A stretch of 59,907 nt of DNA, filler included, from Circinaria calcarea (taxonomy: Eukaryota), in the NCBI GenBank assembly GCA_051942165.1. It is 9 parts of 9 records of this genome, joined end to end, with 100 filler letters (N's around TTAATTAATTAA, not from the genome) between each part and the next. Parts side by side here need not be neighbours in the genome. Positions count along the whole stretch, not along the records: positions 53,357 to 59,907 come from JAVECS010001555.1; 8 more parts are not named here. One strand, 5' to 3'. Below, in pieces: positions 53,357 to 59,907 of the stretch (positions are counted from its first letter, which is position 1; each line of letters starts with the position of its first letter). Position numbers and translations under genes: made by a program. The notes below the pieces were generated by a model. That model saw only the letters and a program-made list of their open reading frames with translations. It had not been told where the DNA came from and ran no database searches.

Positions 53357-53523
53357 GGTAGGGGGATGGTGGGTGGAATATTGTATTTTCCAGGTGGTGT
53401 CAGCAATCCTGGAAACTCCTGCGCTTTTCTCGGTCTCGTAGGCAACGCGGCCGACTTCTGGTGTGTATTCCGGATGATAGTAAACGGTGATGCGTGAGTG
53501 GCCCGGGGGAGGGGGTTTGGCAT
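53357..53523 (-). CDS. Possible 5' fragment of a hypothetical gene
   Basis: An ATG after a pyrimidine-rich leader opens MPNPLPRATHASPF...FPGLLTPP and runs off the contig end. No recognisable motif. Confidence 0.25.
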
Positions 53524-53929
53524 GGCGGTTATAATGTTCCGGGAAAAGGAAAGAAAACGCGAAAGGAGGAGAGATTTGGGCGGAGGTTGGGCAGGGACAC
53601 TCGTAGAATTTGTTTTGGGGGAGGTTTTGGGGGGAATGGGTAGATGTTCTGTGATGGAGAGACTGACTGTTCGGATATGGGGTTCGAGTAGGAAGGTGGG
53701 TGGAGGGGTGGGTCTTCGATGGAAAAGGATATGCGAACATGGTGCTGGGAGAGGAATGCTTCGAAATAGGGGCATTACATATCTGAGAGGTACCACAATG
53801 GTAGTGAGTGGGAGATGAAAGTAGTACTTCCGCTATCATCAGCCATACACCTCTTAGACTTTAAATCTTTTAGTTATTTGCAAGGTAGAAAGATTGATAA
53901 TATTCGGCCACCTATTCTTTTCACCTAGT

Positions 53930-54504
53930 AAAATATATTGATTAAAATGTATTGATTAAAATTGTTACGTCCCTAAGCTTCTTAGGCAAAGGCAATGCTA
54001 GTCACTGGTATAAGGCAGGGGCTCTGTCCGACACGTCACGGGGTTCTATACCAATAGCTGGCAAGTAAGAAGTGACAATAGAAGTATATTGCTACACTTG
54101 TAAGGTCTTGACCACACAGGTCAAATACTATGGAAAGGACTGTGCCTATATACCCTTCCCACGACAGGGATTACAGCAGTGATCTGTCACGGAAACGTAG
54201 TGGTGGTGAATAGCCTGTAGTTGAATTCTAAGCTGCCAGCACCTTTTAACTGCGGTGGGATGCGCTAGGCTGCAAACGGACGCCTAAACGGCCCTGCGCA
54301 CAGTGGGTCCATAACATGATCCCTATGATCCCACTGTTCCGTTCTCAGATCAACTGGATCACTCAGATCACTAGTGCTCCCATTGATCCCATACGTTACA
54401 CAAGGGGTCGCTCGGATCATCCTCCTGAATACCCTTGGTACGTGTAGTACTGGTCACGGCCGGTGGCGCCATTACAAAAATGTATTGATTAAAATGTATT
54501 GATT
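53930..54504 (+). repeat. 14-bp minisatellite (AAAATGTATTGATT, 4 units) split by the LTR insertion
   Basis: aaaatatattgatt aaaatgtattgatt aaaat on the left and aaaatgtattgatt aaaatgtattgatt on the right of the inserted element. Confidence 0.85.
53963..54476. mobile_element. Solo LTR (514 nt) of an LTR retrotransposon with a 5-bp target-site duplication AAAAT
   Basis: Begins TGTTA and ends TTACA (TG..CA termini). Flanked by AAAAT at 53958-53962 and 54477-54481. No coding capacity is evident. Confidence 0.8.
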
Positions 54505-55311
54505 ATTGCTCCTCACATCAAAAAACCCTTGGTACTAATTTACACTTCAGCAGTATTCCGATGTACTTGATTCGAAGTGGATATGCCATTGAAGGGATCT
54601 GCCGACAATGGGCGGTAATACCAGGAAGGGAGGACAGAAACCGGATGAATCCGCCAAGGTCACGTGGTCGCCTCAGACCGTCACTCCGTCGTGGCTTTCG
54701 GAAGCACAGGATGTAACGTCGTTGTGAACTTTGATAGGAAGATGCTGCAGTGTCAGGTTCGTGTTTGCACTTGGGCTAATCTATTCCGTGGAGAACCGTT
54801 TCAACGTCCCAACGGGCATCAACTCCAATCGCCTCGACGTCATACCTTCCAGCATAAGCTGCGAGTGATGCGATCGGCTTTTTCATCCATGTCCCTTTGC
54901 TTACTCTCCTCGCACTGCCATCCCTACAGGAAGAGTGCAATGTCTTATTTACTCATCTACAATGCAGCATTTGTCGTTTGGCTCCGTGATATCTGACCTA
55001 TCCGCTGACCATGAGCACCCGATTATCCAGAGCTCGGCTCAACGCGCAAGTTTAGGGTTGAAGCGAAAGTAGCATCGGGTCCGATCGGGCAGTTGCATTC
55101 ATCTCCTAGGAGTTATTCATTCCCTTAATATAATGCTTATGTTGCGTGTCACCAATTCCCTCATCCATTCCAGCGTTGAAAACTTTCGCTGCTACAGCTA
55201 CCAGAAGCGCTTTCCCCACCAGTCTTAATTGTAACCCGAAAGTGTAGAGCCCTCGTTCACAGCTACTACGATTGAAAGGCAGTCACGGCCCAGAAGGTCT
55301 TCGTGGCAACC

Positions 55312-56046
55312 ATGCAACACATCCCCCCAACCTCTCTTCCCTCTCTACCGCCCCGTCTCTCATACACCCTCTCTTTCCTCGACTTCTGCCCCGATATCGA
55401 CGGTCCCGCCATCAACGCCTCCGCTTCCCTCCTCGGCCCTCTCATTCCTACCGTCCTTGATCTCGTCTACACAAAACTCCTCTCGTACGACATCACGGCC
55501 AAGGCATTCGTCCCTCCGCTCGAGCCCGCCGAGAGCACACCGTCGAAACCGCAAACGCCGCAGGAATTGCACCTCCACCACGCGCACATCCTCCGACAGA
55601 AAACATTCTTGAAAGCCTACCTCTTGCGGATCGCCAAGAACGAAGACTGGTCGCCGCAATCACCATTATGGGGGTATATGGATCGAGTCGCTGTTGCCCA
55701 CACCGGGGTGCATCGGCAGAAAAAACCCGACTTACGGGTCGAGTTCATGCACCTGGCGTTGCTCTTGGGATTCGTCGAGGATGTGCTTTTGGGCGCCGTG
55801 TTGGGCGCGGAGCAGTTGGATGCCGAGGCGAAAAGCAAGGTTCTTCGGGCGTGGAATAAGGTCTTGTGGGTGCAGAATGATCTGTTCGCGAGGCATTATG
55901 TCGTGGATAGGGAAACGGGGGAGCGTCCGGCGGGGATGGAGGTCACAAAGGACAGCAGCCAGAAGCTCAAGGCTTGGGGGATACAGGTGTTTGTTACGCT
56001 ACTTGTTGTTGCTCTGGTCGTGAGGGTGTTGGGGTATCTTGGGTGA
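55312..56046 (+). CDS. Protoglobin / globin-sensor-domain protein with a C-terminal transmembrane tail
   Basis: RLSYTLSFLDF, VLDLVYTKLLSYDITAKAF, YMDRVAVAHTG (likely proximal His), LRVEFMHLALLLGFVED and AWNKVLWVQNDLFARHY, followed by the hydrophobic tail WGIQVFVTLLVVALVVRVLGYLG. Confidence 0.85.
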   Translation: MQHIPPTSLPSLPPRLSYTLSFLDFCPDIDGPAINASASLLGPLIPTVLDLVYTKLLSYDITAKAFVPPLEPAESTPSKPQTPQELHLHHAHILRQKTFLKAYLLRIAKNEDWSPQSPLWGYMDRVAVAHTGVHRQKKPDLRVEFMHLALLLGFVEDVLLGAVLGAEQLDAEAKSKVLRAWNKVLWVQNDLFARHYVVDRETGERPAGMEVTKDSSQKLKAWGIQVFVTLLVVALVVRVLGYLG

Positions 56047-56528
56047 CAAGGTACGACCATACGATCATATTCGACCTACAACGGTATGTGTATGACGGCA
56101 GTTGCATGAGCAAAGTGGGAAATGCTGACTCGAGTTCATCTAGGTAAGAGATGACAATCATAATTGATTTACTAACATCAGTCAATCTATCTCGAACCTG
56201 GAGGATTTGTCACGCCACTCAACAAAAAAAGAGTGACCGATAATCTTAGCTCTTTTTTCTTTTGGTCTTCCCTTGCGTTGAGGCTTTGAGATAAAACCTT
56301 GAACATGATCTTTGCTTTTGACAAAGCATTATCCTACAATGAAAAGCGCCCTGTTGTCCTTTGTCACTTTCGTAATTGCATTTATCTGCCCTATAATCCT
56401 TAGATTTCGCATCCTTATAGCCTTGACCGTTTAAACTTACCACCGATTTCTTGGAAACTCATATACACGTACCGGCAGCATTAGTACCGACCAACCAACC
56501 GGCAAAACCCCATTGCACACATCCCAAC

Positions 56529-57342
56529 ATGTCCGTAGATGACCCCCTTTCCACCTTTCCGGCAAGGTCCTACATGCAGAGACGGCAAGGCCTCGGATTC
56601 TGCACCCCCACGCTCCACTTTCTCACCTGCGGCCACGCCAAACGGACCGTCAACTCCCCCTGCGGCAGCACCTGCCAGTTTCCCCAATTCGCCGAGAAGC
56701 GGGCGCACCCGCTGCGATGCAACAGCTGCGTCCAGTACCGGGACGAAGAGTACCTGCTCGTGCAGTTGGACGAAAACGAGCAGCTGTGACGGCACTACGC
56801 TGCGCTCCAAGGACAGCATTTCTGGGACTGGGCTGTGGAACTGGAGGAGATAGAGGACTTGATCTACGAGAAAGAGGGCCGGATGCGTGCGAACGTGCAT
56901 CCGACCGTGTGGCGGCGGGTATCTGATTGATGGAAGGGAGGCATTGGAGGAGGAGGTCAGGTGGAGGATGGAGGAGGAGGAAACGGCGGAGGAAGAGGCA
57001 GAATAGGAACGGATGGTGGCGAACATGCCCAGGTTAGCGAATACCCCCGACGTGGCGTACTATGATCCTCACCATGCTTACCGCGCGTCTTCGGACCGGA
57101 TCGAGGTCCCGCCCGACTCCTCCGCCCGTCCACATCGCCATGGTAACTCCTCCGTCGCTGGCCCGTCGACCACGGAGGAGGGCATCCAGAGCGCTGCCGC
57201 CGAGTGCGCCCCCCGTACCCCTGTCTCGGACGAGGAAATCCGGAATATTGTTCGCTGGGCGCCCATCGAGGACTATTGGGAAGGCGAGGCGTATCAGGGC
57301 GAGTATGATGACGAGGATTGCTGGGAGGGCGAGGAGGATTAG
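56529..57342 (+). pseudogene. Decayed hypothetical gene with a Cys-rich N-terminus and acidic C-terminus
   Basis: GC-rich coding-like sequence CTPTLHFLTCGH...PCGSTC...RCNSC continues past an in-frame TGA (56787), changes frame near 56915, and passes a TAG (~57004) before MVANMPRL. Confidence 0.55.
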
Positions 57343-57889
57343 GGTGAGGATGATATCGAGGAAGACTGGGATATCGAATCGGTTTAGGATAGAAGCCGTT
57401 TTCGGAAAGGTTCGAGGAAATGGGAGAGGGAGGCGATTTTTTTTGGGGGTGGGCGAGGGGAGTGAAGGATAAGAAAGGGACAATGATAGATGGGTAGTTG
57501 GGTTTTGGGATATGTATGGAGGCACTTTTGTTAGGCAGAGGATAGAGAATTGACTGCTAAGTACACCCAATCTTATTTTTTTGGGGAGTTTGGACAAGTA
57601 ACTTGTCCCATGCCTCCATATTCTCGATTTAACGATTCCCCGACCACGAGCTTGGGCTTTTGTCCTTTTTTCTTACATAAACGGGGAATGGAATAGAGCT
57701 CGGTGTAAGGGCGCTGCAATCCTTGGGGCACAATGAGGAATATGTTATGTCCCGATTGGTGATAGCACGGTTACATAGGGTGTAGTTGAAGTATTGCCCT
57801 AGGCTCAATATGAAAGGAGTATATTAAACTCGGTATGGTTCTATAAACATGCTATTTTAATGAACGAGGAACAGCTTATTTATAAAATG

Positions 57890-58005
57890 TCCTGAGCAAT
57901 CTAAACACCCTGAGCACTCCTCTGCTCATTCCGCTCACCTTGCTCACCTAAGCACCCTGAGCACCATGAGCACTGTTCCGCTCACTCTGCTCACTCTGCT
58001 CCGTC
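57890..58005. repeat. Cluster of degenerate GAGCAC / GCTCAC repeats
   Basis: ctgagcaat, ctgagcact, ctaagcaccctgagcaccatgagcactgt, interleaved with gctcat/gctcac units. Confidence 0.6.
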
Positions 58006-58398
58006 ACGTGTGGTGAACCCGCTAGTCCATTCTTAGCTCTGGACCCTGAGTATGGCGTGGCGCCATAACAATATAAAAAGTATATAATTAAATATTTTAC
58101 GATTTTTTTATAAAAATAAGAGCTAAGGCCTAAAATGGATAGAAAACTAGGCCGAAAAATATAAAAAATTAAATTCTTTACGACCATTTTAAATGTTCTG
58201 TTAAGACTTCAATAGAATTTTACTCGAATCGGACCGGGTCGTGCCCAGATTTATAACCCTTTAACTTCATTCCTTGTTTCAGGGCATTATATACACCCCG
58301 ACCTTAGGATTGAGGATTATTGTTTTTTATTAGGAAAAGGAGCAGGGCCGTTTTAAAAGGAGCACCAGGGAAGCAAAGGGGCCTAGCGGAGGAGCACT

Positions 58399-58560
58399 AA
58401 GGGAGCACGAGGGAGCATCGAGGGAGCATGAGGGAGCATCGAGGGAGCATGAGGGAGCATGAGGGAGCATGAGGGAGCATGAGGGAGCATGAGGGAGCAT
58501 GAGGGAGCATGAGGGAGCATGAGGGAGCATGAGGGAGCATGAGGGAGCATGAGGGAGCAC
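58399..58560 (+). repeat. Decanucleotide tandem array (GAGGGAGCAT)n, 11 perfect copies plus about 5 variants
   Basis: Perfect units 58441-58550; variant units (GAGGGAGCAC, GAGGGAGCATC) on both sides. Confidence 0.97.
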
Positions 58561-58869
58561 TATAGGTCAGTGCAGTAGGTGGTAGTCTGACTTGGCTACC
58601 TCCGTACCTGGCTGCAGCTGCTCGTGTTATCTACAATAAATTCGATCAATAGTAATGCCTAATTCAGCCTGCTGTTGTTTGGACGCCTCGAACTTCCGCC
58701 GGTCAAATCATTTATTGGGCACCGATAGGACTTGGTTGAAGCAAGGCTCTGAAGGTAGATTAGAGCTTTCGAACAAAGACATAATTAGTAGGGTAGAATC
58801 TTTCATAATGGAAAGACCGTCTTGGTCGGTAGGAATGCCCGATTCTTCTTTGCTGTCTCGTGGGTTGAC

Positions 58870-59379
58870 CTAATATCTCTTAAAGGAGCCCTTGCATTCC
58901 ACGCTTCCACCACACGGGAAATTATTCTTCAGCCCAAAATCATGAGGTCCATACATGTCTAACTCCACTCCTGGTTGCGGGCGCCCTAACTGTATAACCC
59001 CTTCCGGCACCCATATATGTCCAAGCCCCACCCTTTTGCCATTAAATTTGACCTCCCAACCCAGATGAGGTCCTTGATCAGAACCGGGTTGCGGAACATC
59101 GACGTCTAACATACAATCAATGGTATAGCAGTTGGCATTCTGCCACATACCATCGAAGTGTGTGTTGATTTCAACAACAATAGGTCCTGCACGGGTAGAA
59201 TCATGACTCGTATAAAGACTATGGGCGAGGGAATTGGAGCCGTACTGGCTTTTGATCCAGTTGCGATGCGCTACCGGAATATTCAGGATGGTGCCGATGC
59301 ACTTTACCGATTTCTCGATGGCCATTCCATTGGCATGTCGAACGCTTATTGCGTTGCCGTCCAACTCTGCTGCATCCAT
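58870..59379 (-). CDS. Intronless 169-aa protein resembling the polymorphic-toxin RNase domain Ntox47 (putative)
   Basis: Intact ATG-to-TAG ORF with globular composition. The motif series IVVE...LDVD...GPHLGWE...GKR..GHIW...GR matches my recollection of the Ntox47 consensus; not verified by search. Confidence 0.55.
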   Translation of the reverse strand: MDAAELDGNAISVRHANGMAIEKSVKCIGTILNIPVAHRNWIKSQYGSNSLAHSLYTSHDSTRAGPIVVEINTHFDGMWQNANCYTIDCMLDVDVPQPGSDQGPHLGWEVKFNGKRVGLGHIWVPEGVIQLGRPQPGVELDMYGPHDFGLKNNFPCGGSVECKGSFKRY

Positions 59380-59699
59380 AAAGGATAATTATCCTGCACT
59401 GACTCTCTCTTTATTTATTCGAAAGCTGAGAGATAAGAAAGAATGCTACGTAATGGCAATGTTAGCCGTGCTTAAGATAACAGTGGAAGCAGGTACTTAT
59501 GCGTTTCAGCAGAGGTTATTATGAATCAAAAAGGGATATCAAAGGGTTTTTTTAGGGATTACTCTATCCCAGAGACTCTGTTCACTCTAAGTATATAGGT
59601 AGCAGGAGGCTGAACTAGGCAACAGCGTTACACGAACAGCCCAAGAAACTAAAACCTATTAGGAGGCAGCCAATTAAATTATTATATACTACGCCGCTT

Positions 59700-59907
59700 C
59701 CTGCTCTAAATGTAAACCGGTTTTACCGAAATAATTAAAAAGAGCCGAAAATCGTGATTGGGACACGTGGAGAAAGAGGCGGGGGAAAATATATTAATTA
59801 AACCCTTTTTTCGTTCTATATTTTAATTATCCCTCGAGTAATTTCTTATATATATTATATACGATTTATATACTTTTTTATAAAATAAATATATATATAT
59901 ATTATAA
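59700..59907. repeat. Very AT-rich, TpA-rich relic (RIP-like degraded repeat) at the contig end
   Basis: Runs such as ttatatatattatatac, aaataaatatatatatatattataa; low GC relative to flanking genes. Confidence 0.55.

Follow-up and report, generated by a model that had tools for sequence, protein, structure and literature searches.

A stand-alone protein of Circinaria calcarea as a candidate divergent relative of the bacterial toxin domain Ntox47

The P0001 gene and its predicted product

We analyzed a window of 59,907 nucleotides, filler included, joined end to end from nine parts of the genome of Circinaria calcarea. All coordinates refer to the whole joined window, in which positions 53357-59907 come from JAVECS010001555.1. 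Near the end of this contig an open reading frame (ORF) on the minus strand encodes a 169-residue protein, P0001, which an earlier note on this DNA had likened to Ntox47, a predicted ribonuclease (RNase) tip of bacterial polymorphic toxins. We find that P0001 belongs to a eukaryotic protein family, and we consider this family to be probably a divergent relative of Ntox47 with a homologous fold, judging by profile comparisons and structural models. The P0001 gene is real and intact, is probably vertically resident in the fungus, and codes for a predicted cytosolic protein of ~19 kDa from an unnamed eukaryotic family. The best overall explanation, to which we give somewhat better than an even chance, is that this protein has a fold of the Ntox47 type and works as an RNase inside the producing cell.

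An in-frame TAA at 59391-59389, 12 nt upstream of the P0001 ATG, makes a longer N-terminus impossible in this frame. The closest homologues, P0002 (86% identity over 100% of the length) and P0003 (79% over 95%), share the start methionine, and the gene is therefore intronless and complete. A Kyte-Doolittle scan of P0001 located no hydrophobic stretch fit for a signal peptide or a membrane helix (the maximum mean is 1.05 over 19 residues, and 0.60 over 9 residues within the first 30). The intact, intronless 169-residue minus-strand ORF without signal peptide or transmembrane helix described in the earlier note is thus confirmed by the ORF call, start codon, homologue coverage and hydrophobicity, and all of the motif strings listed there are present in the translation. 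P0001 is much more than an ORF that arose by chance: HMMER, run exhaustively over 1.84 billion representatives with the single P0001 sequence, returned 33 proteins at E ≤ 1e-3 (18 of them at E ≤ 1e-10), and the AlphaFold2 model calculated on the family alignment A1 has a mean predicted local distance difference test score (pLDDT) of 92.4 and a predicted template modelling score (pTM) of 0.88.

In this model an N-terminal strand (residues 4-9) is followed by a long helix (13-29), helices in 36-59, strands 68-78 and 84-94, a loop (95-104), strands 105-112 and 115-123, and an extra hairpin (141-152/159-168). The gene and its predicted elements are as follows.

58870 to 59379, minus strand: complete intronless coding sequence of the stand-alone Ntox47-like protein P0001, 169 codons plus stop, ATG start
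59293 to 59370, minus strand: N-terminal beta-strand and long helix, residues 4-29, carrying A16-N17 (from model and alignments)
59203 to 59274, minus strand: extra insert of three helices, residues 36-59, in place of a short strand (31-35) of genuine Ntox47 (from the secondary structure of the two models)
58978 to 59106, minus strand: predicted catalytic core, residues D92-P134 (from conservation, strand limits and Ntox47 motif match)
59100-59098, minus strand: D94, at the end of a strand in the core
59067-59065, minus strand: H105; P104-H105 opens the next strand, after the extended loop carrying Q102
59019-59017, minus strand: H121, in G120-H121, after G107-W108-E109 and G114-K115-R116
58983-58981, minus strand: R133, in G132-R133-P134, a late turn of the core
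58873 to 58959, minus strand: C-terminal beta-hairpin, residues 141-169, ending SF(K/R)RY; kept in the fungal clade and absent from the 110-residue Ntox47 domain

A family in fungi and bdelloid rotifers

Three long repetitive proteins (P0032, P0033 and P0035, E 3.8e-5 to 6.8e-4) were removed from the search results as spurious. Alignment A1 contains 24 sequences and leaves out the fragments P0004, P0005, P0008, P0013, P0014, P0022, P0023 and P0036 as well as P0020 with its tandem domains. The members have a common N-terminus. D94, G107 and R133 are conserved in 24/24 sequences, H105 and E109 in 23/24, H121 in 23/23 and Q102 in 22/24; A16-N17 and G132/P134 are nearly invariant. Conservation of the histidines among homologues, which the earlier note had made a test of its reading, is thus found. 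The catalytic set proposed there stands in part: the family retains the His, Asp and Arg named there, whereas position E70 is Glu in half of the sequences and the second His is not common to Ntox47.

We looked up 30 homologue clusters, 10 of which carry an organism name; P0003 and P0037 bring the named clusters to 12. All 12 are eukaryotic and comprise nine species of Pezizomycotina and four bdelloid rotifers. Five of the fungi form lichens (Dirinaria sp., Vezdaea aestivalis, Candelina mexicana, C. submexicana and Candelaria pacifica); the others are Arachnomyces sp., Penicillium angulare, Rhizina undulata and Morchella snyderi. The rotifers are Rotaria magnacalcarata, Adineta steineri, A. vaga and Didymodactylos carnosus. 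The closest named relative of P0001 comes from a lichen fungus of the Caliciaceae. No bacterial relative appeared in the exhaustive single-sequence HMMER search, in 185,579 prokaryote species genomes scanned with a P0010 pattern and tblastn, a procedure that detects close relatives only, or in 401 Pseudomonadota genomes searched with the family profile (0 matches). Metagenome contigs yielded no confirmed relative with P0001 or with alignment A3.

A maximum-likelihood tree built from 29 rows unites the four named rotifer rows in one clade (support 96/93), which lies among fungal rows under a midpoint root; this root serves for drawing only and gives no direction of transfer. The topology suggests one eukaryote-to-eukaryote transfer between fungi and rotifers. 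Bdelloid rotifers are animals known to take up foreign genes. The earlier note had considered horizontal transfer; a recent one from bacteria is not borne out: no bacterial relative was found in the searches above, and the family extends across Pezizomycotina and bdelloid rotifers.

Broken copies occur among close relatives of P0001 (72-81% identity). P0005 carries the N-terminal and P0008 the C-terminal half of a single gene that has lost its D92-D94 segment; both lie on the same three contigs (lengths 3445, 22953 and 28873), and they occur on up to 50 contigs. In both P0004 and P0013, PHLGWE is mutated to SRLGGQ. The family looks like a conflict-type gene under recurrent gain and loss, because its range is patchy, repeats adjoin it, close relatives hold broken copies, and the rotifer clade lies among fungal rows. 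We found no description of the family in the literature and no paper on a fungal Ntox47 by title, a search covering neither figures, supplements nor the online family list of 10.64898/2026.08.28.747851.

Two family members depart from the single-domain layout. P0020 from Rhizina undulata (285 residues) has the domain twice, in tandem, within a single protein. In P0037 from Adineta vaga (1116 residues) the domain is N-terminal and is followed by GMC-oxidoreductase and PNK3P Pfam domains; this is the only longer form among 7999 candidates scored, and it is probably a merged gene model.

Possible relationship to Ntox47

Ntox47 (PF15540) forms the C-terminal tip of Rhs/type VI secretion system and LXG/WXG toxins; its type member is Salmonella Rhs2, with SciX as immunity protein. 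Table 2 of PMC3482391 lists it for beta- and gamma-proteobacteria and firmicutes only, and the signature given in this 2012 catalogue (Zhang 2012) is D,[HRK],RT,E,D,PH,H,[DE],R. According to 10.64898/2026.05.10.723254, Rhs2 binds EF-Tu and requires D192 and H204 for toxicity, and SciX resembles CdiI. To obtain genuine domains, we searched 401 Enterobacteriaceae genomes with PF15540 and found six matches at E ≤ 1e-3, two of them above the Pfam gathering cut-off of 25 bits. The best domain (216 bits) belongs to a 277-residue Rhs fragment at a locus termed L007. We collected 74 PF15540 proteins with the L007 domain and aligned 72 toxin domains, leaving out the short P0119-P0121; alignment A2 holds 53 sequences (52 of the 74 proteins and the L007 domain). 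The Ntox47 consensus reads FD.AR..AFE.AGMT.P..V.FSKVDP.TGTVVEFKG..GAKVAYD.PH....GHD.PHVGWQ..GKR..GG..RGNITY.GPQHP.R, and F11, D12, A22, T39, G40, T41, V43, E44, F45, H59, H68, H72, R88, N90, Y93, G95 and H98 are invariant in A2. Of the Ntox47 motifs given in the earlier note, PHVGWQ, GK and the terminal Arg recur in genuine domains, whereas its 'GHI.L' corresponds to RGNITY.

The L007 locus itself (L007:1-2318) is a typical orphan Rhs array, with an upstream Rhs C-terminal fragment bearing a different tip, and a small ORF. Behind the 277-residue fragment with the Ntox47 tip comes a SciX-like ORF of 148 residues, which overlaps the stop codon of the fragment.

P0001 alone matches no Pfam family at E ≤ 10 and no NCBIfam family. 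Scanned at the same threshold, the 24 family members return eight Pfam families, each for one member, and Ntox47 is the best of them: PF15540 aligns with residues 26-102 of the Candelina protein P0010 over profile positions 38-105 of 120 (E 0.064, 13.9 bits). It is notable that the family named beforehand comes first among 24,736 Pfam families, though below threshold. Profile-profile comparison of A1 with the 72 Ntox47 domains by hhalign gives a score of 23.2 (P 0.003, probability about 10%, 10.7% at most), and comparison with A2 gives P 0.0068 and a probability of 5.6%. None of 150 column shuffles of the Ntox47 profile and none of 150 of A1 reached the observed score (mean ~12, maximum 22.2), and a reversed profile scores 9.9. 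The relaxed alignment is colinear, pairing fungal residues 7-137 with Ntox47 5-105 and, within these, A16/A14, N17/R15, VVE/VVE, F.G/FKG, PH.GW/PH.GW, GKR/GKR and GRP/..R; A14 and R15 of Ntox47 are nearly invariant. Adding the secondary structure of the models changed nothing. By these statistics the similarity between the two families appears real, weak but specific, and limited to one motif and a consistent order of weaker motifs. The profile check proposed in the earlier note has thus given a divided answer: no member reaches the Pfam cut-off, while Ntox47 is the best sub-threshold family for P0010, and the hhalign score of A1 against the Ntox47 domains exceeds that of every shuffle.

Searches of other sequence collections were silent on this point. 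The single P0001 sequence and the family profile retrieved just unrelated weak rows from the PDB (best E 0.076-0.25), and PADLOC gave two unrelated weak matches (E 0.025-0.031, each for 1/24 members). The genuine Ntox47 domain and its alignment likewise retrieved just Rhs-core matches among PDB sequences and did not reach 5T86.

We folded the genuine Ntox47 domain from A2 as well (pLDDT 89.9). Its model contains strand 4-8, helix 11-21, strands 31-35, 42-46 and 52-56, a loop, and strands 72-76 and 88-93. The best compact PDB neighbours of the fungal model, 5t86_A (CdiA-CT) and 8kc0_A, are also those of the Ntox47 model, so that two of the top three neighbours among 48,161 chains are common to both. 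The best structural Z of the fungal model, 5.8, is to a de novo designed protein. Foldseek returned nothing at E ≤ 0.001 for the fungal model from the PDB or from the BFVD viral structures; its best PDB rows (E 4.6e-3, TM 0.28) had raised a HORMA/Mad2 fold, which we rejected. The genuine Ntox47 model itself reaches 5t86_A at just E 2.9e-3, and the silence of Foldseek on the fungal model is therefore weak evidence against a relationship. In the ESM Atlas the best score was 0.80, to unnamed bacterial clusters below lead level; no named cluster was found. Of the structural check for a BECR fold suggested by the earlier note, a confident model with the neighbours 5t86_A and 8kc0_A was obtained, and a Foldseek match at E ≤ 0.001 was not.

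Elements follow one another in the same order in the fungal and Ntox47 models, from an N-terminal strand and a long helix through two strands and an extended loop bearing P-H to two further strands. Both families also have A-(N/R) where the helix begins, VVE, a D-x-P closing a strand, P-H-x-G-W-(E/Q), G-K-R, G-x-I and an Arg late in the sequence. Fungal D94 ends its strand like D56 of Ntox47 (Rhs2 D192), and P104-H105 opens the next strand like P71-H72 (H72 is Rhs2 H208). There are also differences. The fungal protein has an additional 24-residue helical insert and a 29-residue C-terminal hairpin; it stands alone, without an Rhs, PAAR or LXG part or a SciX-like neighbour; and its family is eukaryotic, whereas Ntox47 is catalogued for bacteria in PMC3482391. 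Of the four invariant Ntox47 histidines (H59, H68, H72 and H98), H72 alone is matched, by fungal H105. At the H68 position or next to it the fungal family carries Ser, Thr or Asp, and Q102 replaces D69.

Several observations weigh against kinship with Ntox47. None of the 24 members reaches the Pfam cut-off (best 13.9 versus 25 bits), the hhalign probability is just 5.6-10.7%, and a single motif of 14-17 columns, PH.GW(E/Q)..GKR, accounts for the score. The Ntox47 hidden Markov model (HMM) gives at most 5.1 bits on 28 family members, when 560 shuffled decoys reach 9.3, although 11/28 members lie above the 95th decoy percentile and 5/28 above the 99th. Conversely, the family HMM gives at most 6.3 bits on the 72 Ntox47 domains, just six of which exceed the maximum of 720 decoys; 36/72 lie above the decoy 95th percentile. 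In five PF15540-bearing genomes (E ≤ 1e-3; two above cut-off), the family profile had no match at the PF15540 loci and matched elsewhere in two of the five (E 0.56-0.74). In structure searches with the fungal model, Foldseek did not match 5T86, and 5t86 lies outside the top 1000 chains. Invariant H59, H68 (Rhs2 H204), R88 and H98 of Ntox47 have no fungal counterpart, and N90 is not matched, fungal H121 standing in its place. Position E70 in A1 is Glu in 12/24, Gln in 11/24 and Val in 1/24. P0001 is not a member of the Pfam family Ntox47 as defined by sequence, because no member reaches the cut-off, three of the four invariant histidines are absent, an insert and a hairpin are added, and the protein stands alone.

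The fold is most likely, according to the models, of the alpha+beta 'BECR-like' type represented by Ntox47 and CdiA-CT (5T86). As described in 10.64898/2026.08.28.747851, the BECR-like superfamily comprises 67 families, Ntox47 among them, and has its conserved residues on either side of a long loop, at the C-terminus of beta3 and the N-terminus of beta4; its members do not recover canonical BECR proteins in structure searches. The P0001 model resembles this superfamily in its N-terminal strand, helix, beta3-equivalent, extended loop, beta4-equivalent and beta5, and in its use of His. The arrangement is reproduced at the level of predicted secondary structure only, with D94 ending strand 84-94 and H105 starting strand 105-112. 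No canonical BECR member occurs among the Pfam, PDB-sequence, Foldseek or PDB-structure matches of P0001 or its family. In the text sections of 10.64898/2026.08.28.747851, as distinct from its family list, figures and HMMs, the Ntox47 branch has no named member from fungi or rotifers. With the CdiA-CT/CdiI pair of E. coli A0 34/86 (5T86) the match is weak, Foldseek being silent for the fungal model and a sequence match lacking; no published mechanism is reported for 5T86 in 10.64898/2026.05.10.723254.

Competing explanations, possible function and genomic setting

The main competitor of a divergent Ntox47 relative is a conserved eukaryotic protein in which a helix on a sheet and one motif resemble Ntox47 by chance or convergence, and which has another chemistry or a binding role; an example would be a site of His, Glu and Asp that binds a metal or a small molecule, of the kind found in the beta-alpha-beta-beta-beta modules of glyoxalase/bleomycin-resistance proteins. 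We regard this as rather unlikely, though it deserves serious attention. It would account for the sub-threshold level of every sequence link, for a best structural Z that points to a de novo designed protein, for a His set unlike that of Ntox47 and for the want of a usable named neighbour in the ESM Atlas. Chance resemblance does not sit well, however, with the top sub-threshold rank among 24,736 Pfam families of a domain named in advance, with a profile-profile score that beats 300/300 shuffles, with two of the top three PDB neighbours of 48,161 chains shared with the genuine Ntox47 model, or with motifs that are colinear and lie on equivalent secondary-structure elements. Matches to the glyoxalase type span just 52-61 residues.

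The two other explanations concern the gene rather than the fold. P0001 might be intact yet dispensable, a decaying gene that is unexpressed or neutral and has no present function in this fungus. The broken relatives P0005/P0008 and P0004/P0013, with their lost D92-D94 segment and SRLGGQ, respectively, and the position between a simple repeat and an AT-rich contig end are in line with such decay; P0001, P0002 and P0003, on the other hand, keep all conserved core residues at full length and 79-86% identity, and codon usage is typical of the window genes, so we rate the chance of decay as slim. Bacterial contamination, or chimeric joining at the end of the contig, could be suspected from the position of the gene, ~530 bases from that end and beside repeats, and from a domain type otherwise known from bacteria according to the catalogue in PMC3482391. 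The window contains 704 N, which make up sixteen 44-base blocks, paired ~6.7 kb apart, within 6584-53356 and look like masking rather than assembly gaps. Between 53357 and the end there are none, and the P0001 ORF is therefore contiguous with host genes; the sequence is gap-free from the protoglobin ORF (55276-56046) to the end. The G+C fraction (GC) of P0001 is 0.486 and that of third codon positions (GC3) is 0.50, and its codon-usage cosine to the pooled window genes (0.837) equals the mean of 28 same-sized gene chunks, against 0.770 for a bacterial Rhs ORF. Gap-free sequence and typical composition thus make a contaminant or chimera very unlikely, with next to no chance in our estimate. The 12/12 eukaryotic named clusters and the failure to find a relative in 185,579 prokaryote species genomes (close relatives only) or, by profile, in 401 Pseudomonadota genomes point the same way. 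Composition thereby speaks against the contamination that the earlier note had considered.

If P0001 is a divergent relative of Ntox47, its chemistry might be that of an RNase. We hold the arguments for and against RNase chemistry to be evenly poised, because the case for it is one of analogy, with Ntox47, which is itself a predicted RNase only, and with the His/Glu/Arg sites of small RNases. A His/Glu/His/Arg set on a small sheet is the usual site of 2',3'-cyclising RNases such as RNase T1, barnase and the fungal ribotoxins. None of these has a sequence or structure match to P0001 in any search; ribotoxins are secreted by means of a signal peptide, and P0001 has none. In the predicted fold, an N-terminal strand and a long helix would precede an antiparallel sheet; D94 would end one strand, with an extended loop leading to P-H105, which opens the next. 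E109 would share the strand of H105, H121 would sit on the strand next to it, and a G-R-P turn would hold R133. The putative enzyme would be a metal-independent endoribonuclease with D94, H105, E109, H121 and R133 as candidate acid-base and transition-state residues. D94 aligns by motif and strand position with D192, a residue required for Rhs2 toxicity (10.64898/2026.05.10.723254). By analogy, the target may be RNA of the translation machinery, either tRNA or rRNA, so that translation would be hit.

Because P0001 has no signal peptide, delivery module or linked immunity gene, it would act inside the producing cell, as an effector of conditional conflict, defence or cell death rather than as an exported toxin; this intracellular conflict role is the weakest inference that we draw. 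A search for a SciX-type antidote by tblastn with the SciX-like ORF of L007 gave a best E of 0.95 in the window, and none of the seven ORFs neighbouring P0001 has a Pfam family that reaches cut-off, in agreement, within the window, with the earlier report that no immunity gene is recognisable. A more elaborate scenario, which we put forward as a speculative and distinctly improbable one, is that P0001 descends from a bacterial translation-targeting toxin tip, adapted to eukaryotes with a rebuilt catalytic His set, and serves as an antidote-free intracellular RNase in self-destruction, antiviral defence or genome conflict, the gene having moved between eukaryotes. On this view gain and loss would form an ongoing cycle, with the broken copies of sister lichen fungi as its traces.

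According to PMC3482391, 'at least 13' polymorphic-toxin domains have moved to fungi, for instance Tox-ColicinD in Ascomycota, and P0001 would represent the same phenomenon, a toxin-tip fold in a eukaryote without the bacterial delivery part. Such transfers are thus already known; an Ntox47-like case in fungi and rotifers would be the new part. Unlike those fungal toxin domains, the P0001 family also occurs in bdelloid rotifers and has diverged below profile-HMM detection. If the link holds true, toxins of the Ntox47 type would not be confined to bacteria as in the 2012 catalogue, and one more family would join the polymorphic-toxin folds domesticated by fungi, distinguished by this divergence, by its exchanged catalytic His and by its presence in rotifers. 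P0001 would then be a small, easily expressed protein with which to study how eukaryotes tolerate or control a toxin-type RNase without a neighbouring antidote, and its role in lichen fungi. Should the link fail, there is still an uncharacterised family that folds confidently and whose candidate active site is clear.

The window as a whole is unremarkable, gene-dense fungal DNA. It encodes Bud13, Brr6, HMG-CoA synthase, a VPS9-ankyrin protein, DNA polymerase alpha subunit B, a GDA1/CD39 protein and the protoglobin ORF, and these genes reach 56 kb; with core genes extending that far, we do not find the fungal accessory region in which the earlier note had placed P0001. Its description of a tandem array on one side of the gene and an AT-rich stretch on the other is accurate:

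58391 to 58559, no strand assigned: 10-bp tandem array GGAGCATGAG, 16.6 copies, 95% matches, starting 310 bp downstream of the P0001 stop codon
59380 to 59907, no strand assigned: 5' flank of P0001 and AT-rich contig end, GC 0.34 (0.26 in the last 208 bases), including the TAA at 59391-59389

The nearest recognisable neighbour of the P0001 gene is the protoglobin-domain ORF at 55276-56046 on the plus strand (PF11563, E 6e-31). Between the two, the plus strand carries at 57013-57342 an acidic-rich ORF of 109 residues, which matches no Pfam family at cut-off. It is overlapped by a 45-bp repeat at 57265-57371 (2.4 copies), which encodes units of the EYWEGEE type, and the ORF may be part of an unannotated gene between the protoglobin ORF and P0001.

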